32,000 nt of DNA, taken from assembly GCF_037157815.1 (NCBI RefSeq), contig NZ_CP089984.1. One strand, given 5' to 3'. Below the pieces are notes generated by a model. That model searched no databases and was not told the DNA's origin. It saw nothing but the letters and a program-made list of their open reading frames with translations. This DNA comes from Pendulispora albinea (lineage in GTDB: Bacteria > Myxococcota_A > Polyangia > Polyangiales > Polyangiaceae). Of this stretch, positions 7,348 through 15,393 are shown piece after piece (the stretch's first letter is position 1; each line of letters starts with the position of its first letter). Position numbers and translations under genes: made by a program.

Positions 7348-7944
7348 ATGGCCGCGGCGCGATTGGTTTTGGGCAGCGGCTCGCCCCGCCGTCGCGAGAT
7401 CCTCGAGTCGCTTCGCATTCCGTTCTTCGTGCGCATCCCGCACGTCGACGAGACCGTGCAACCCGGCGAGGGCCCGGACGCGTACTTGGAGCGGGTCGTA
7501 GGGGCCAAGCTCGGCGCCGTTCATGCTTTGCTCGACGAGGCGGAGCAGCAAACGGCCGCTATCATTCTGGTGGCCGACACCAGCGTGATCCACCGCGGCG
7601 AGATCCTCGGAAAGCCTGCGAACGTGGAGCACGCCGAGGCCATGGTGCGCGCGCTCGCCGGCGACACCCACGAGGTGAAGACGCGCTTTGCGCTCGCATC
7701 CAGCGCGACGGGCTTGCCCTTTCACGCGGAGACCGTGACGACCAAGGTCACCTTCCGCGCGCTCTCCGACGAAGAAATCCGCGACTACGCGGCGAGCGGG
7801 GAGGGGGCGGACAAGGCGGGCGCGTACGCCGTCCAAGGCTTTGGCGCATCGTTCGTCTCCCGCATCGACGGCAATTATTCCAACGTGGTGGGCCTCCCCG
7901 CGTGCGAGCTGGTGGTCGCGCTGCAACGCCACGCGCCGCGATGA
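7348..7944 (+). CDS. maf: Maf-like nucleoside triphosphate pyrophosphatase
   Basis: Motifs: RLVLGSGSPRRREILESL, ILVADTSVI, ILGKP and DKAGAYAVQGFGASFVSRIDGNYSNVVGLP. The track starts at GTG 7309. ATG 7348 (MAAARLVLGSGSPRR) fits the usual Maf N-terminus better. Confidence 0.85.
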   Translation: MAAARLVLGSGSPRRREILESLRIPFFVRIPHVDETVQPGEGPDAYLERVVGAKLGAVHALLDEAEQQTAAIILVADTSVIHRGEILGKPANVEHAEAMVRALAGDTHEVKTRFALASSATGLPFHAETVTTKVTFRALSDEEIRDYAASGEGADKAGAYAVQGFGASFVSRIDGNYSNVVGLPACELVVALQRHAPR

Positions 7945-9803
7945 AATACGGCGCCGCGCTGGCCTCGGCGCTCGCGTTGGCCGTCCGCCTCGCGACCGTC
8001 GTGTGGGCGTGCGATCGCTTCCCGCCCGCAGGCGACGGGACCTACTACCACGTGTTGGCCACGCGCATGGCGGAAGGTCACGGCTACACCTGGCTCTGGC
8101 CCGATGGCGCGGTCACGTATGCCGCGCACTACCCGGTGGGCTACCCGGCGCTGCTCGCGTTGGGGTATGTGGTGTTTGGCGCGCGGCCCGTCGTGGCCAT
8201 GGTGATCAACGCGCTGCTCGGCGCGGCGATGACCTTCGCCGTGTACCGCTTGGTCGACACGGGTGCGCCTGCGCCGGGTTCGCGGAACGGTGCGCTGGAT
8301 TCGCGGAGCGGTGCGCCGGGCTCGCGGAGCGGTGCGCCGGGTTCGCGGAGCGGTGCGCTGGATTCGCGGAGCGGTGCGCCGGGCTCGCCGATCGGTGCGC
8401 TGGATTCGCGGAGCGGTGCGCCGGGCTCGCCGATCGGTGCGCCGGGTTCGCGGAGCGGTGCGCGGGAATCGCGGAGCGGTGCGCCGGACTCGCCGATCGG
8501 TGCGCCGGGCTCGCGGAGCGGTGCGCCGGACTTGCGGATCGCGGCGCCGGACTTGCGGATCGCGGCGCCGGACTTGCGGATCGCCGTGCCGGACTCGAGG
8601 ATCGCTGCGCCGGGCTCGCGCATCGCCGCGTTGGGCTCGCGGATCGCGGCGCTGGGTTCGCGCATCGCCGCGTTGGGCTCGCGGATCGCGGCGCTGGGCT
8701 CGCGCATCGGCGCGCTGGGGTTGCGCGTCCGCGCACCGTGGATCGTGCCGCTTGGCGCCGCGCTGGTGGTCGGGCTTCACCCCGCGCTGGTTCCGTACAC
8801 GGCGGCCGTGATGACGGAGGGTGTGACGGCCGCGTTTCTCGTCTTTGCCGCGGCGATTGCGGCGCCGGCGCGCTCGGTGGTGCGCACGCGAAGCTTGGCG
8901 CTTCGTCTGGGCGCCGCGGGCATCGTGATGGGGCTTGCGACCCTGGTGCGCCCGCAGTCGCTGGTGCTGGCCCCCGTGCTCGGGGGGCTCGCGCTCGGCC
9001 CGGGCTTCTCCGTTCGCGCGCGCGCGTTCGCGGCGGCCTTCGTGTGCGCGTCGACGGTTCTCGTGTGCGCGCCTTGGACGGTGCGCAATTGTTTGCATAT
9101 GCAACGATGCGCGCTGGTGAGCGTCAACGCCGGGTGGAACCTGTTCATCGGCGAGGAAACGAAGAGCGGCGCGTGGGAGGAGATCCGCTTTCCCGACGCG
9201 TGCAGCACCGTGTGGGACGAGGCGCAGAAGGACGTCTGCCTGGAGCGGGTCGCGCGCCGAAATATCCGGGGAGCGCCCGTAGGCTGGCTCGCCCGCATGC
9301 CCAAGAAGCTCGCGGTGACCTTCGACTATTTCGGCGCCGCGCCTTGGTACCTCCACGTCTCCAATTCGCAGGCCTTCCCCGAGCGCGCCAAGGTGGTGCT
9401 CGGCGCGATCGAGACGGTGGTCTCGCGCCTTCTCCTGATCGCGGCCCTCGTCGCCCTCGCCGCGCGCCAAGGTGCACGGCGCGCGATGCGCGTGGCCTTG
9501 GGTGTCGCCGGCATCGCGCTCGCCTTGTCGCCCTCGGGCTGGCCCGCGTACCTGGTGCTGGCGCTGCTCGCGGCCGAGCGCGCCCTCGAACACGACGCCG
9601 CCGACCGTTTTCTCCTGGGCTGGACCGCCGCCGTCATCGCCGCCACGGCCGCGACGCACGCGGTGTTCTTTGGCGCCGGGCGGTACGGCCTGGTGGTCGT
9701 ACCGTTCGTCTCCGCGCTGGCGTGTGGGGTGCTCGGATCAGGGACCGGGGCCGGGAAAGCGTCCCGTGAGGGCGAGACCGCCGGGCACCTCGAGATCCTT
9801 TAA
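7941..9803 (+). CDS. GT-C fold glycosyltransferase, family 39 / ArnT-PMT_2-like, carrying an internal heptapeptide repeat insertion
   Basis: The ATG at 7941 overlaps the maf stop (ATGA at 7941-7944). The N-terminus MKYGAALASALALAVRLATVVWACDRFPPAGDGTYYHVLATRMAEGHGYTW...YPVGYPALLALGYVVFG is typical of GT39/PMT_2 proteins. Many hydrophobic helices follow the repeat as well (PLGAALVVGLHPALVPYTAAVMTEGVTAAFLVFAAAI...). Confidence 0.8.
   Translation: MKYGAALASALALAVRLATVVWACDRFPPAGDGTYYHVLATRMAEGHGYTWLWPDGAVTYAAHYPVGYPALLALGYVVFGARPVVAMVINALLGAAMTFAVYRLVDTGAPAPGSRNGALDSRSGAPGSRSGAPGSRSGALDSRSGAPGSPIGALDSRSGAPGSPIGAPGSRSGARESRSGAPDSPIGAPGSRSGAPDLRIAAPDLRIAAPDLRIAVPDSRIAAPGSRIAALGSRIAALGSRIAALGSRIAALGSRIGALGLRVRAPWIVPLGAALVVGLHPALVPYTAAVMTEGVTAAFLVFAAAIAAPARSVVRTRSLALRLGAAGIVMGLATLVRPQSLVLAPVLGGLALGPGFSVRARAFAAAFVCASTVLVCAPWTVRNCLHMQRCALVSVNAGWNLFIGEETKSGAWEEIRFPDACSTVWDEAQKDVCLERVARRNIRGAPVGWLARMPKKLAVTFDYFGAAPWYLHVSNSQAFPERAKVVLGAIETVVSRLLLIAALVALAARQGARRAMRVALGVAGIALALSPSGWPAYLVLALLAAERALEHDAADRFLLGWTAAVIAATAATHAVFFGAGRYGLVVVPFVSALACGVLGSGTGAGKASREGETAGHLEIL
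8262..8729 (+). repeat. 21-bp (7-aa) in-frame tandem repeat, about 22 units, inside the GT39 gene
   Basis: Units lie at 8289+21k (k=0..20), plus one irregular first unit. Examples are GGTGCGCCGGGCTCGCGGAGC and GCGGCGCTGGGCTCGCGCATC. They translate to GAPGSRS / GALDSRS / GAPGSPI, then AAPDLRI / AALGSRI. Partial 42-bp higher-order structure is visible. All six frames are open across the array. Confidence 0.95.
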
Positions 9804-10807: not shown

Positions 10808-11226
10808 TCGTCGACGCCGAACAAGCGATCGCCGGTTCGAAAACGACGGCCTCCGGGCCCACTTGACGAACGGGAGGAAAGTCCGAGCTCCAAAGAGTGC
10901 GATGCCGGGTAACGCCCGGTGGCGGAAACGCCCAGGAGAGTGCCACAGAAAACAAACCGCCTCGCCCCGGCGCACGTTCGTGCTCCGCGCGAGGTAAGGG
11001 TGAAACGGTGGGGTAAGAGCCCACCGCATCGGCGGCAACGTCGATGGCATGGCAAACCCCATCGGGAGCAAGGCCGCGTAGGCAGGCGCTACAAGGGCTA
11101 CTCGCCCAAGCCTGCGGGTTGGCTGCTCGAGGCGTCCGGTAACGGCCGCCCTAGAGGAATGATCGCTGCCGCGCAAAGGGCAACCCTTGCGCGGAACAGA
11201 ACTCGGCTTACGGACGACGTCGACCA
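10808..11226 (+). ncRNA. rnpB: RNase P RNA, bacterial type A
   Basis: Universal conserved blocks are present in the right order: GGGAGGAAAGTCCGAGCTCC (P4 5' strand, ~10872), GAGAGTGCCACAGAAAACAAACCGCC, GGTAAGGGTGAAACGGTGGGGTAAGAGCCCACC (10993-11025), GGCAAACCCCATCGGGAGCAAGGCC and ACAGAACTCGGCTTAC (P4 3' strand, 11196-11211). P1 pairs GTCGACG (10810-10816) with CGTCGAC (11218-11224). P2 pairs AGCGATC with GATCGCT. The ends are good to about +/-5 nt. Confidence 0.9.
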
Positions 11227-11228
11227 CG

Positions 11229-11271
11229 CGCCTGCGTTTCCCGCGAGGGAGCGCAGGCGTCGTGCTTTTTT
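11229..11271 (+). terminator. Hairpin plus T-run directly after rnpB (candidate intrinsic terminator)
   Basis: CGCCTGCG (11229-11236) pairs perfectly with CGCAGGCG (11252-11259). The inner stem is TCCC/GGGA, closed by a GCGA (GNRA) tetraloop. Then comes TCGTGC and T6 (11266-11271). The 6-nt gap between stem and T-run is atypical. Confidence 0.55.
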
Positions 11272-11620
11272 GCGGCCGCGTTCCGCGAGGGGTCGCCGGC
11301 GTCGTGCTTTTTTGCGGCCGCGTTTCCGCGAGGGGTCGCAAGTGTCGTGCTCTTTGCGCCCCGTTCACCGCGAGGGGGTCGCCGGTGTCGCGATTTTTTG
11401 CGGCCACGTTCCGCGAGGGGTCGCCGGCGTCGTGCTTTTTGCGCCGCGTTCACCGCGAGGGGTCGCCGGCGTCGTGCTTTTTTGCGGCCGCGTTTCCCGC
11501 GAGGGACCGTGTCGTGCTTTTTGCGGCCGCGTTCCGCGAGGGGTCGCCGGTGTCGCGCTTTTGCGCCCGTTCACCGCGAGGGGTCGCAAGTGTCGTGCTT
11601 TTTGCGCCCGTTCACCGCGG
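11259..11620 (+). repeat. Tandem array of 8 full and 1 partial ~42-bp (40-43 bp) units reiterating the rnpB terminator module
   Basis: Unit starts: 11259, 11301, 11344, 11387, 11429, 11471, 11511, 11552, 11592. Consensus is GTCGTGCTTTTTTGCGGCCGCGTTCCGCGAGGGGTCGCCGGC. Two subtypes exist: ...GCGGCCGCGTT(T)CC(C)GCGAGGG and ...GCGCC(C)CGTTCACCGCGAGGGG. Units abut head to tail with no unique spacers. The last unit supplies the stop codon of the convergent SDR gene. Confidence 0.95.
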
Positions 11621-12508
11621 CGGGGACGTATTTTCGAGCCAGGCGACGATGGACGGATGGTGCGGTTTCCACCCGAGCTCGGCGCGGGCTCGCTTGGCGC
11701 GCACGCGGCTGTTGGACGCAAGGTGAAGGTGCGCATCGGCGAAGCCCCAGAAGCGCGCGGCCTCCTCGATCGAAAGGCTGGCCGCCGGCAGCCCAAGCCG
11801 CCGCCCGACGGCGGTGACCACGGTCTTCAGGTCCGCTTCGCCGTTTTCGGCATAGTAGAACGCACCCCCGGGCGCCTTCTCCAGCGCGAGCAGGTACAGA
11901 TCGGCCAGGTCCTCTACGTGGACGTTGGACCAGACGTTCGCACCCCGCCCAATCCAGTGCGCCGCGCCGCTCGCGCGCGCCTCGCGCTCGATGTTCGGGA
12001 TCTGGATGCTCTCCACCTTCAGCCCCAGGCCGTCGCCGTACACCATGGTCGGGCAGATCACGATGGAGTGGACCCCCTGGTTCGCCGCGCGCTGCACGGC
12101 GCGATCGGTGGCGACGCGATCGGCCTTGTCCGCGATGGGCTCGTAGTCCGTGTCCTCGTCGAAGACGTCGGCCACGAGCTCGCCCTTGGCGTCCGTGGAG
12201 ACGATGCTCGAGCCGCTGGTGTGAAGGAACCGCTTCCCCGAGCCTTCCACCCCGCGCAAGAGCGCGTCGACCGAAGCCCGATGGTCGGCGTCGGCCGCGC
12301 TGATCACGGCGTCCGCCTCGCGCGCCGCCTCCGTGAGGGCGGCCAAGTCCGAGAGGCTCCCGAGCACGGGCTCGATGCCCCGCGCGCGCAGCGCCGACGC
12401 GCGCTCCTCCGTGCGCGCGAGCCCGCGCACCCGATGCCCCGCCCGCCGAAGCCGCTCCGCGACCGTCCCGCCGATGTACCCCGTCGCACCCGCCAAAAAG
12501 ATGTTCAT
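11612..12508 (-). CDS. NAD(P)-binding SDR-family protein (NAD-dependent epimerase/dehydratase or NmrA-like)
   Basis: ORF track 298 aa. It opens with the Rossmann motif MNIFLAGATGYIGGTVAERL. It is divergent from a LysR gene. Confidence 0.8.
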   Translation of the reverse strand: MNIFLAGATGYIGGTVAERLRRAGHRVRGLARTEERASALRARGIEPVLGSLSDLAALTEAAREADAVISAADADHRASVDALLRGVEGSGKRFLHTSGSSIVSTDAKGELVADVFDEDTDYEPIADKADRVATDRAVQRAANQGVHSIVICPTMVYGDGLGLKVESIQIPNIEREARASGAAHWIGRGANVWSNVHVEDLADLYLLALEKAPGGAFYYAENGEADLKTVVTAVGRRLGLPAASLSIEEAARFWGFADAHLHLASNSRVRAKRARAELGWKPHHPSIVAWLENTSPPR

Positions 12509-12601
12509 GGTCCGCCTCCTTTGCTGCCCCGGACCTTAGGTCGCGCCATTTACGCTCGATAGACCCGTTTCTTTCGCAGGACTCGTTCCTAGAATTCGCG
12601 A

Positions 12602-13498
12602 ATGACCATCCTTCAAGAGCCGCTCACCGGCCTCGCCGCCTTCGTCCACGCGGTGGAGACCGGGAGCTTCAGCGCGGCCGGGCGCCTGCTCGGCGCGTCG
12701 CCCTCGGCCGTGAGCAAGGTGGTGGCCAAGCTCGAGAGCCGCCTGGGCGTGCGCCTCCTGCAGCGCACCACGCGCGCGCTCCACCCCACGGCCGAGGGCT
12801 TGTGGCTCTACGAGCGCGGCCAGCGCATCGTGACGGAGCTCGCCGAGACCGAGGTGGCGCTGCGCGAGGCACACGGCCCGCGCGGGCTGCTCCGCATCAC
12901 GGCCCCCGTCGATCTGGGCCGCCACTGGCTCACCAAGCAGCTGCCGAAGTTCTTCGCGCAGTACCCCGAGATCACCTGCGAGCTCAGTCTCACGGATCGC
13001 TTCGTCGATCTGGTGGACGATCGCTTCGACGTGGCGCTTCGCATGGGCGAGGCGGCCGACGGCCCGCTCATCCGGCGCAAGCTCGGTCCCACCCGAACCT
13101 CGATCTGCGCGGCCCCGCGCTACTTGCGAAGGCGCGGCACCCCGCGGCACCCCAAGGATCTCGCGGCGCACGACTGCCTGCCGTACGCGCGCGACGGCAA
13201 ACGCCAGACGTGGACCGTCGGCAATGTCACCGTGTCGGTCACCGGCCCCTTCGCGGCCGACAACTGCGACGCGCTCCTGGCCATGGCGCTCTCCGGCGCA
13301 GGCGTCGTGCTTCTGCCGCGCATCGTAGCCGCGCCCGACGTGGGCGCGGGTCGGCTGCGCGCGCTCTTTCCCAAGTACCCCTCGTACGGGCCCAACGTGT
13401 ATGCCGTTTATCCGGAGCAGCGGCATCTCTCGCCGCGCGTGCGCGCCTTCGTGGACTTTTTGGCCACCGAGTATCCGCGGTCGCTCGATGTCCTCTGA
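12602..13498 (+). CDS. LysR-family transcriptional regulator
   Basis: ORF track 298 aa. N-terminal wHTH: LAAFVHAVETGSFSAAGRLLGASPSAVSKVVAKLESRLGVRLLQRTTRALHPTAEG. A C-terminal substrate-binding domain follows. The gene is divergently paired with the SDR gene across a 93-bp spacer containing AGGA-N5-TCCT (12578-12590). Confidence 0.9.
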   Translation: MTILQEPLTGLAAFVHAVETGSFSAAGRLLGASPSAVSKVVAKLESRLGVRLLQRTTRALHPTAEGLWLYERGQRIVTELAETEVALREAHGPRGLLRITAPVDLGRHWLTKQLPKFFAQYPEITCELSLTDRFVDLVDDRFDVALRMGEAADGPLIRRKLGPTRTSICAAPRYLRRRGTPRHPKDLAAHDCLPYARDGKRQTWTVGNVTVSVTGPFAADNCDALLAMALSGAGVVLLPRIVAAPDVGAGRLRALFPKYPSYGPNVYAVYPEQRHLSPRVRAFVDFLATEYPRSLDVL

Positions 13499-13515
13499 CG
13501 TGCGTCGATGGTAGA

Positions 13516-14469
13516 ATGAGCGCCGTCATGCGGCCGCTCTTTGCCGATCCTCGAACCGACTACGCATTCAAGGCGATCTTCGGTACGGAAGAGCACAAGC
13601 CGTTGCTCGTCGCGCTGCTGAACGATCTCTTGGAGCTCGACGAGGCGCATCGGGTGGTGCAGGTGGAGTTGCTGTCGGCAGAACAGCGTCCGAAGGTAAG
13701 TGAGCTCAAACACTCCATCGTCGACGTGAAGTGCCGCGATGCACGCGGCACCACGTACGTGGTCGAGATGCAGGTGCTCAATGTGGAGGGCTTCGAGAAG
13801 CGCGTCGTCTACAACGTGGCCAAGGCCTACACGAGCCAGCTGGGGATCGGGGAGCATTACCCGACGCTGAACGACGTCATCGGCGTGACCATCTGCGATT
13901 TCAACCTCTGGCCGGAGGCGGAGGTGCCGCTCTTGAGCCGCTGGCGCATGCAGGAGCAGCACACGCGGCGGGTCGGCTTGCCCGAGCTCCAGTTCGTCTT
14001 TTTGGAGCTGCCAAAGCTCGACCGAACGCGCGAGCCGCAAACGGTGATTGAAAAGTGGGCCTACTTCTTCCGCGAGGCCTCGAAGCTGAAATCCGTTCCG
14101 CCCGTGCTCGCGCAAAAACCCCACCTCGACGCGCTGGATGCTGCCCGCACCGCCCGATTCTCCGAGGAAGAGTGGGAGGCGTACATCCGCGCGGGCATGG
14201 CCATTCAAGACGAGCGCGGCGCGCTCTCGCTCGCCCGGCGGGAGGGGCGCGAAGAGGGCCACAAAGAGGGGCACAAGGAAGGGCACACGGAGGGCCAGCT
14301 TATCCAAGCTCGCACCACACTGCGCCGCGTGCTGCGCGCACGCGGGCTCGCCATCTCCGCCGAGGACGAGGCCCGCATCGATGCGTGCTCCGACCTCGCC
14401 ACCCTCGACCAATGGCTCGATCGCAGCCTCACCGCCGACACGGTCGCGGCCGCCCTCACATCGGCATAG
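13516..14469 (+). CDS. Rpn-family (YhgA-like, PD-(D/E)XK) recombination-promoting nuclease / putative transposase
   Basis: The in-frame part of track ORF 12802..14469 starts at MSAVMRPLFADPRTDYAFKAIFG. It continues ...SIVDVKCRDARGTTYVVEMQVLN...VIGVTICDF...LQFVFLELPK (D...D/E-x-Q/K nuclease core as in TIGR01784-type proteins). The C-terminal helical tail contains EGHKEGHKEGHTEG. Confidence 0.8.
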   Translation: MSAVMRPLFADPRTDYAFKAIFGTEEHKPLLVALLNDLLELDEAHRVVQVELLSAEQRPKVSELKHSIVDVKCRDARGTTYVVEMQVLNVEGFEKRVVYNVAKAYTSQLGIGEHYPTLNDVIGVTICDFNLWPEAEVPLLSRWRMQEQHTRRVGLPELQFVFLELPKLDRTREPQTVIEKWAYFFREASKLKSVPPVLAQKPHLDALDAARTARFSEEEWEAYIRAGMAIQDERGALSLARREGREEGHKEGHKEGHTEGQLIQARTTLRRVLRARGLAISAEDEARIDACSDLATLDQWLDRSLTADTVAAALTSA

Positions 14470-14478
14470 ACTCGGCCG

Positions 14479-15393
14479 CTAAGCGGCTTTGCCGGTCGTC
14501 GCAACAGGCGTCTCCGCCTCGGCGACCATCGCGCCCTTCATCTCCAGCTCCTGACCGAGACGCCGGCGCAACTTCATCTTGGCACGCGACTCGATTTGGC
14601 GGGCCCGCTCGCGCGACACGCCCAGGCGGCGTCCGATTTCGGCGAGGCTCAGCTCGTCGGGATCGTCGGCCATCACGCGGACGGTGACGATGTAGCGCTC
14701 GCGTGGATCGAGCTCGTCGAGCGCTTCGCGCACCCGGTGCTCGATCTCGTGCGTGCGCTCGTAGCGCAGAAAGCGCTCTTCCTGCGAGGGAAGCGGGGAG
14801 GGGAGCGCGTCGACAATCGATGCGGTCGTATCGTCGTGGGCCTTGGTGTCGAGCGACAGATCGCGCGCCTCCACCCGCTGCGCGAGCTGCGAGATCTTTT
14901 CCTTGGTGGTGCCAAAACGGCTCGCGAGCTGTTCGGCGACTTCGTCCGAGTCGGAGGTGAGCGCCGAGATTTTTGCTTTCTCCCTTCGGAGTCGAAAGAA
15001 CACCTTGGAGCGCAACGGACCGGCTCCAACGCCCACGATGCTCCACGCGCGAATCACGTAGTCGAGAATGTACGCGCGGATCCAGTGCGCGGCGTAGGTC
15101 ACGAAACGCGTTCCGCGGTCGGGATCGAATTTCCGAAGGGCGGTCATCAGGCCCACATTTCCCTCGGAGATCAGATCGGCAAGGCGCAGTCCGTAGCGGC
15201 GGTAGGTCAGAGCAATCGCGACCACGTGCCGCAAATTCGCCTCCACCAGCGCCCCCACGGCCTCGGGATCGCCGAGGTCGCGCACCCGCACGGCGAGTGC
15301 CCACTCGTCTTCGCGCGATAAAGCGGGTGCTCGCTGCACGCGCGCGATGTACCGCGAGACGCTCGAATTCGGATCGAGGGAACTCTTCATCAT
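14479..15393 (-). CDS. rpoH: RNA polymerase sigma factor, sigma-32 (RpoH)-like group 3
   Basis: ORF track 304 aa. Region 2: LVEANLRHVVAIALTYRRYGLRLADLISEGNVGLMTALRKFDPDRGTRFVTYAAHWIRAYI. RpoH-box-like: LRSKVFFRLRREK. Region 4: LSLAEIGRRLGVSRERARQIESRAKMKLR. Confidence 0.8.
   Translation of the reverse strand: MMKSSLDPNSSVSRYIARVQRAPALSREDEWALAVRVRDLGDPEAVGALVEANLRHVVAIALTYRRYGLRLADLISEGNVGLMTALRKFDPDRGTRFVTYAAHWIRAYILDYVIRAWSIVGVGAGPLRSKVFFRLRREKAKISALTSDSDEVAEQLASRFGTTKEKISQLAQRVEARDLSLDTKAHDDTTASIVDALPSPLPSQEERFLRYERTHEIEHRVREALDELDPRERYIVTVRVMADDPDELSLAEIGRRLGVSRERARQIESRAKMKLRRRLGQELEMKGAMVAEAETPVATTGKAA

Follow-up and report, generated by a model that had tools for sequence, protein, structure and literature searches.

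Tandem repeats in the 3′ flank of rnpB, the gene for RNase P RNA, are known from Escherichia coli K-12, where a unit of 113 bp was reportedly described by Reed and Altman in PNAS in 1983. In the K-12 genome (NC_000913.3), rnpB lies at 3270216-3270592 on the minus strand and is followed by 3.5 copies of the 113-bp unit with 96% identity, as the initial annotation of the locus treated here had stated; the repeat begins about 22 nt inside rnpB, and each full copy carries an intact terminator, AAAAACCCGCTTCGGCGGGTTTTT. Other systems share one or another of these traits. At E. coli tyrT, 178-bp tandem repeats behind the gene reiterate the tRNA 3′ end together with the terminator region. Tandem terminators, both natural and engineered, for example rrnB T1-T2, consist of a few distinct terminators, each of them strong individually. 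Bacterial intergenic minisatellite or VNTR loci are exemplified by mycobacterial MIRU-VNTR, MIRUs being a dispersed family, and a VNTR is defined by copy-number variation between strains.

The locus to be compared with these systems lies in a window of 32,000 nt, the whole stretch of contig NZ_CP089984.1 of Pendulispora albinea that was analysed, and all plain coordinates are positions in this window. An rnpB gene is followed by its intrinsic terminator, here called u0, and behind u0 by eight full copies of 39-44 bp, which extend to 11603, and one partial copy, the units being delimited at T-run/GCG boundaries:

10813-11225, plus strand: rnpB, bacterial class A RNase P RNA (Rfam RF00010, 279.6 bits, E 1.5e-90, model positions 1-367)
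11226-11271, plus strand: u0, the rnpB intrinsic terminator and master copy of the repeat, a hairpin with a GCGA loop followed by T6 (terminator-scan call)
11272-11313, plus strand: u1 (TRF and unit alignment, as for all units down to u8)
11314-11355, plus strand: u2, in which CTCTTT replaces a clean T-run
11356-11399, plus strand: u3
11400-11440, plus strand: u4
11441-11483, plus strand: u5
11484-11522, plus strand: u6
11523-11562, plus strand: u7
11563-11603, plus strand: u8
11604-11619, plus strand: u9, the partial unit that closes the array, GCGCCCGTTCACCGCG, matching nt 1-16 of u8 exactly (sequence and unit alignment)

TRF places the array at 11238-11619, with a period of 42, 9.2 copies, 82% matches, 10% indels and a score of 443, and it also detects an 85-bp super-period over the array (4.6 copies, score 476); beyond the first 16 nt of u9 (11604-11619) there is no clear match to the unit. 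The head-to-tail arrangement of terminator-like units behind rnpB, proposed in the initial annotation, is borne out by TRF and the unit alignment, and the latter also supports the proposal that the copies reiterate the rnpB terminator. Their polarity is that of rnpB, as had been noted: all the T-runs followed by GCG are on the plus strand, with starts at 11266, 11308, 11353, 11394, 11436, 11478, 11518, 11559 and 11599, and the AT skew across the array is -0.55. A T-run had been claimed for every unit, which holds for eight of the nine units u0-u8 and fails at 11314-11355, where only CTCTTT is present; in the copies u1-u8, the T-runs span 3-6 T, and the run directly after the stem is T4-T6 in seven of the eight and CTCTTT in the remaining one. 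The identity of u1-u8 to u0 ranges from 63 to 78%, and among themselves from 65 to 95%. The unit alignment reveals mosaic subtypes, with 5′ and 3′ variants recombined between units, which fits the several rounds of duplication suggested previously, and the 85-bp super-period fits the two irregularly alternating subtypes.

Tandem repeats are prone to copy-number errors, and the sequence comes from a single-contig long-read assembly, so that an assembly artefact or a misjudged copy number has to be considered. This explanation is exceedingly unlikely, since the units are set apart by numerous substitutions and indels with a structured, mosaic distribution, a pattern that collapse or expansion does not give, and the array, of about 390 bp, is far shorter than a long read.

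The first unit, u0, begins 1 nt past the Rfam end of rnpB. Its stem, as folded by RNAfold, comprises a 10+3-bp core with the GCGA loop and three outer pairs, and T6 follows two nt past the stem; the strong hairpin with a GCGA loop and T6 recognized earlier just after the RNase P RNA is thus confirmed, the core being close to the 8+5 bp given then. The folding energy of u0 is -28.5 kcal/mol, with a z-score of -4.4 against 300 dinucleotide shuffles, and u0 therefore has what characterizes an intrinsic (Rho-independent) terminator, that is, a GC-rich hairpin that beats the background, a T-run directly next to it and a position at the 3′ end of a gene. The hairpin is present in both same-genus genomes, with 19 predicted pairs when the three sequences are compared, and one pair shows a compensatory change, from C-G in the same-genus genomes to U-A here. 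On the strength of this hairpin and of its genus-wide conservation with a compensatory change, u0 is predicted to be the still-working terminator of rnpB.

Downstream of u0, P. albinea departs from its closest relatives in gene content, the following features being involved:

11612-12508, minus strand: NAD-dependent epimerase/extended-SDR gene, 298 aa, convergent, opening the cassette (PF01370 3.3e-17, PF13460 8.1e-13)
12602-13498, plus strand: LysR-family regulator, divergent from the epimerase gene (PF03466 4.6e-43, PF00126 3.6e-19)
13516-14469 (start approximate), plus strand: PD-(D/E)XK nuclease ('transposase' PDDEXK_2, Rpn-like), closing the cassette (PF12784 1.6e-43, residues 250-474 of the long ORF 12802-14469)
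11268-14524, no strand: segment without counterpart here in the two same-genus genomes (blastn of oriented rnpB loci)

Homology with the same-genus loci extends up to genome position 2910264 (window 11268) and is found again from 2913520 (window 14524) (blastn). The synteny break at 11268 is the end of the first T-run, and the start of the array is the left edge of a 3.2-kb cassette composed of the epimerase, LysR and nuclease genes, which occurs only in P. albinea among the three same-genus genomes; the GC content goes down to 0.60-0.65 over the PD-(D/E)XK nuclease gene. Where P. albinea has the array and the cassette, the other two genomes carry a co-directional peptide-deformylase-like gene, and this swap directly behind rnpB indicates that, in this genus, gene content changes on the 3′ side of rnpB. 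The sister genomes lack an orthologue of the epimerase, the best matches there being 53-54% identical and located at other loci, and an exact-protein look-up found no other assembly with an identical epimerase. Site-specific integration of an island at rnpB was rejected, as the far boundary of the cassette shows neither the rnpB end nor the unit as a direct repeat. In the sister species, a short direct repeat, GCGC...TTT-GCGC, brackets the single terminator, and the unit boundaries coincide with it.

The array had been described as abutting the stop codon of the convergent SDR gene, and the contact is in fact closer: the stop codon of the epimerase gene (TCA on the plus strand, 11612-11614) and its last two codons are inside u9. 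The translation ends in ...NTSPPR before the stop, and this C-terminal tail is unlike those of its homologues. Either the duplicated segment took in the end of the epimerase gene, or the gene now ends in repeat-derived sequence. The locus thereby offers a case of a neighbouring gene drawing its stop codon from a tandem repeat.

The copies u1-u8 have kept their T-runs, whereas their stems have dropped to the stability of any GC-rich sequence. The hairpin parts of these copies fold at -10.9 to -15.1 kcal/mol and their dinucleotide shuffles average -11.5 to -17.2 kcal/mol (z-scores of -0.6 to +1.8), none of the eight exceeding the background. When the u0 stem is mapped on the unit alignment, 73.6% of the pair cells are paired versus 64-65% in some slid controls, and covariation in the stems of u1-u8 is at shuffle level only. 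The partial stem complementarity previously attributed to every unit is therefore not upheld, since the energies equal those of dinucleotide shuffles and the pairing does not exceed what composition would produce. Variability in the alignment peaks in the two stem halves, and the most conserved columns are the 'loop' CCGCGAGGG and the GTCGYGC-Tn tail, a distribution opposite to that expected from selection on hairpins.

These features bear on the possibility that the array is a selected stack of fail-safe terminators or an insulator, whose copies were retained after the arrival of the cassette and catch RNA polymerase that reads through, shielding the convergent gene from antisense transcription and collisions. 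Such a role would agree with the T-runs all having the polarity of rnpB, with the array exactly filling the gap between rnpB and the convergent gene, the next gene in the sister species being co-directional, and with 4-5 of the copies still being called terminator-like by a lenient site finder. Nevertheless, the copies show shuffle-level hairpin stability, no covariation and their greatest variability in the stem halves, the upstream u0 is already very strong (-28.5 kcal/mol, T6), and no relative has such a stack, so that selection for fail-safe termination is unlikely. If it were nevertheless true, the array would represent a simple, evolvable insulation of newly acquired convergent genes from a strong promoter.

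Set beside the systems described above, the array resembles the E. coli rnpB repeats in layout only. In both species the repeats are head to tail, stand at the end of rnpB with its polarity, reiterate a Rho-independent terminator and are non-coding. However, the E. coli unit measures 113 bp and is present in 3.5 copies with 96% identity, compared with 39-44 bp, 9 copies and about 78-82% here; it begins within the mature RNase P RNA, whereas the array in P. albinea follows the Rfam end at 11225 and its units consist of the terminator only; and three E. coli copies keep intact terminator hairpins, the distal copy being decayed, in contrast to the decayed stems past u0 here. The E. coli and P. 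albinea units lack sequence similarity, which points to independent origins, so that the head-to-tail order is shared, and neither a segment of mature RNA in the unit nor common descent is. With E. coli tyrT, the array has in common a stable-RNA gene followed by tandem repeats of its own 3′ end or terminator region, although the tyrT unit is much longer, includes part of the mature RNA and belongs to a different gene. As in rrnB T1-T2, several terminator modules follow one another behind a stable-RNA gene with high expression, but here one strong terminator is followed by decayed copies of the same terminator. With bacterial minisatellite or VNTR loci, the locus shares a non-coding, head-to-tail, single-locus array, a unit within 10-100 bp, diverged units, a higher-order period and absence from sister species; the unit, unlike the dispersed MIRUs, is confined to one locus, the comparison covering one strain of the species.

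Searches of the 12.24-Mb genome with six individual units and a consensus dimer (blastn-short) returned only chance matches of up to 21 nt outside the locus, and the whole array matched nothing but itself. In public collections of genome and metagenome contigs, a degenerate core pattern of 24 nt matched once per collection, by chance and in neither case with a T-run or an array. Within the genome, the unit is confined to this locus and does not qualify as a REP-like element; the genome-wide scatter that the initial annotation had named as the observation that would speak against a link with rnpB is not seen, and a dispersed REP, BIME or REPIN element is ruled out. That a dispersed REP/BIME-like or mobile repeat just happens to adjoin rnpB thus has practically no probability, the public scans having yielded chance hits only.

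Other classes of repeat were also rejected. A coding repeat is ruled out because units of 39-44 bp shift the frame and no periodic peptide results; the spanning ORF, 11187-11726, overlaps rnpB and the epimerase gene and contains no repeated peptide. A CRISPR array is likewise ruled out, since the units abut without spacers and the whole 42-bp period repeats.

A role at the RNA level would make the array part of an rnpB 3′ trailer that acts as a processing substrate, an exonuclease buffer or a source of small RNA. The primary rnpB transcript of E. coli has a 3′ trailer that undergoes processing, and this precedent and the rnpB polarity of the array are consistent with such a role. On the other hand, the strong u0 lies upstream of all the copies, which themselves lack stable or covarying structure; an Rfam search of the array gave no match even at E ≤ 1, and the array is conserved in none of the relatives, all of which makes a function of the transcribed array very improbable.

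The T5-6 tracts between 11266 and 11603 are spaced 40-45 bp apart, with a mean of 41.6 bp or about four helical turns, on one strand, and this phasing could in principle yield intrinsically curved DNA. A DNA-level element, either an array of protein-binding sites or intrinsically curved DNA, would account for this spacing and for the best-conserved columns being the 'loop' and the GTCGYGC-Tn tail and not the stems. The recent common descent of the units would, however, also give conserved blocks, the motif occurs nowhere else in the genome, a preferred period of 42 bp is absent from the non-coding arrays of the genome and the array is not conserved in relatives; a DNA-level element is accordingly a most unlikely explanation.

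The comparison of related rnpB flanks, suggested in the initial annotation, was carried out in 170 Myxococcota genomes, comprising the present genome, its 29 nearest relatives (two of the same genus, 16 of the same family and the rest of the same order) and 140 further ones. A single hairpin with a T-rich run and no array stands behind rnpB in all 29 nearest relatives, and in none of the 169 other Myxococcota, both same-genus genomes included, is the hairpin-plus-T-run module repeated behind rnpB, so that the array is limited to P. albinea in this survey. In the same vein, among the 169 genomes of the 170 with a long enough 3′ flank, P. albinea alone has at least three terminator-like sites within 420 nt of rnpB. 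Tandem arrays near rnpB (period of at least 15, within 600 bp) were found on the 3′ side in 9 of the 170 genomes and on the 5′ side in 21, which indicates that tandem repeats are not enriched 3′ of rnpB, and a general tendency of Myxococcota rnpB 3′ flanks towards tandem repeats was discarded as an explanation. In four other genomes an array follows directly behind the terminator, none of them repeating the hairpin-plus-T-run module:

Genome G064, behind the rnpB terminator: two-copy hairpin module
Genome G115, behind the rnpB terminator: 29-bp GC-rich unit, ended by the contig end
Genome G106 (L071), 3′ of the rnpB terminator: about five tandem 18-bp GCGCTTCGCGC UUCG mini-hairpins and a 27-bp x 2.2 array, T-run not repeated
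Genome G154 (L153), 3′ of the rnpB terminator: 300-bp array of GGGGCC/GGGAGCC type, 19 bp x 15.7, T-run not repeated

A further array was observed on the other side of the gene in a genome of the same family (G008, L027), where about seven units of 31/41 bp (GCGGTGCTTTTTGGCTCTTCGGCTGACGCC...) with T5 runs on the rnpB strand lie 40-340 bp 5′ of rnpB, in the gap that separates it from the stop codon of the preceding gene.

Within the P. albinea genome, arrays of this general kind are frequent. TRF identified 197 non-redundant arrays with a period of at least 25 and at least 4 copies, about 16 per Mb. At least 64 of these are non-coding for certain: no open frame crosses them, and their periods are distributed evenly modulo 3. 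Among five other Myxococcota genomes, the density was 0-21 per Mb in small samples of 120-400 kb each. In a TRF-independent search for clusters of at least three hairpin-plus-T-run sites on one strand, with a cut-off of 6 pairs in the site finder, 18 clusters were recovered compared with about 3 expected under uniform placement (1.45 simulated for one strand). Eight of the 18, counting the one at rnpB, show regular spacing or fall on a TRF array, each having its own unit sequence, and at least seven arrays elsewhere in the genome, none at a locus connected with rnpB, contain hairpin-plus-T-run modules with unrelated unit sequences. The best-defined examples, in genome coordinates, are:

8994018-8994589, minus strand: 74 bp x 7.8 copies, at least three units with a hairpin of -23 to -26 kcal/mol and T4-5; located between convergent ORFs and overlapping the end of the plus-strand ORF, as at the rnpB locus
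11573563-11573752, minus strand: at least six 52-bp units with an 11-bp stem, TCCGTACGGCG/CGCCGTACGGA, and T4-7
9980033-9980255, plus strand: 38-bp units with hairpin and T-run; a sigma-factor-like gene stops directly before the array, and a convergent ORF ends 4 bp away
10895026-10895287, minus strand: about ten 27-bp units with a GGCCC-GCGAA-GGGCC hairpin and T4, downstream of an apparent gene end; found via TRF, its 5-bp stems being below the 6-pair cut-off

In the last of these, three units have GACCC/GGGTC, a compensatory replacement of G-C by A-T that keeps the stem, and the pattern suggests an 81-bp super-unit. Terminator arrays with their own sequences at several loci indicate that minisatellites of this type are a recurrent feature of the genome, independent of rnpB. 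By a rough estimate, the share of the terminator type among about 100 non-coding arrays is approximately what random intergenic seeding would produce. A consistent context of convergent gap and matching polarity was sought for the other terminator-like arrays, and the results obtained with a crude ORF caller were mixed, some arrays showing it and others not. Two other hairpin-plus-T-run arrays in convergent gaps with matching polarity are in line with selected fail-safe termination, while the mismatched polarity of other terminator-like arrays of the genome speaks against it. A broader version of the same idea would see in the stacks of hairpins and T-runs a recurrent selected device with which this myxobacterium insulates convergent neighbours, the stack at rnpB having been kept once a convergent cassette had inserted downstream of a gene with very high transcription. 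It is based on the stacks at no fewer than eight loci, each derived from a different local terminator, and on the stem kept by a compensatory variant at 10895026-10895287, and it is considered improbable.

Taken together, the array is probably a minisatellite that is neutral and specific to this lineage, had the rnpB terminator as its seed, borders an accessory cassette and gives at most weak back-up termination: only u0 has the features of a working terminator, no relative has the repeats and about 200 other arrays exist in the genome, which makes an ordinary repeat produced by slippage the most likely interpretation. The functional reason for the array invoked in the initial annotation finds no support, the copies being at background stability without covariation, the array absent in relatives and arrays common genome-wide. 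The repeat would have originated by tandem duplication of the rnpB intrinsic terminator via replication slippage, followed by unequal recombination, and the substrate for slippage may have been the GCGC...TTT-GCGC bracket that surrounds the single terminator in the sister species. The copies being closer to each other than to u0, and the mosaic subtypes with the 85-bp super-period, suggest that an early duplicate of u0 probably decayed and was then re-amplified in several rounds. Under this scenario, nearly all rnpB transcription should stop at u0, and u1-u8 would be a by-product, whose effect would at most be weak back-up termination and a spacing of 350 bp to the convergent gene.

Some considerations weigh against regarding the copies as a by-product. 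With T-runs retained on the rnpB strand in eight of the nine units u0-u8, a hairpin of about -14 kcal/mol followed by T5-6 may terminate to some extent, and additional termination could be useful at exactly this place, with a strongly expressed stable-RNA gene on one side and a recently arrived convergent gene on the other. The units are only about 78% alike, which implies that the array has persisted for some time and has not collapsed. By analogy, the independent repeats at the tail of E. coli rnpB could also reflect a shared cause. Nevertheless, if the ladder behind rnpB is a private minisatellite with decayed copies, convergence with the E. coli repeats is by itself no argument for function. 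What looked like a striking ladder of terminators behind an essential ribozyme gene thus turns into a private minisatellite of one species whose copies have decayed; the value of the analysis resides mostly in what it rules out, together with the natural example of an intrinsic terminator flanked by microhomology that seeds a tandem array at a rearrangement junction.

Several further repeats were observed in the course of the survey. A GGCGCCAGGG / CCCTGGCGCC-type motif is common to the consensus units of several otherwise different arrays, for example those at genome positions 2007305-2008165, 4055560-4056146, 1193328-1193800, 8600202-8600493, 9039076-9039430 and 10468032-10468424, and may mark a dispersed repeat family in the genome. 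At 6498030-6498622 of the genome, a 119-bp x 5 array without a T-run lies 117 bp downstream of a tRNA-Asp gene, and at 1925037-1925500 a 99-nt 'tRNA-Ala' called by ARAGORN falls inside a 30-bp x 14.7 array and is probably a false positive. Within the window, a 21-bp x 21.4 array with 84% match at 8270-8719 is contained in the plus-strand ORF 7902-9803 and corresponds to a GAPGSRS-like heptapeptide repeat.
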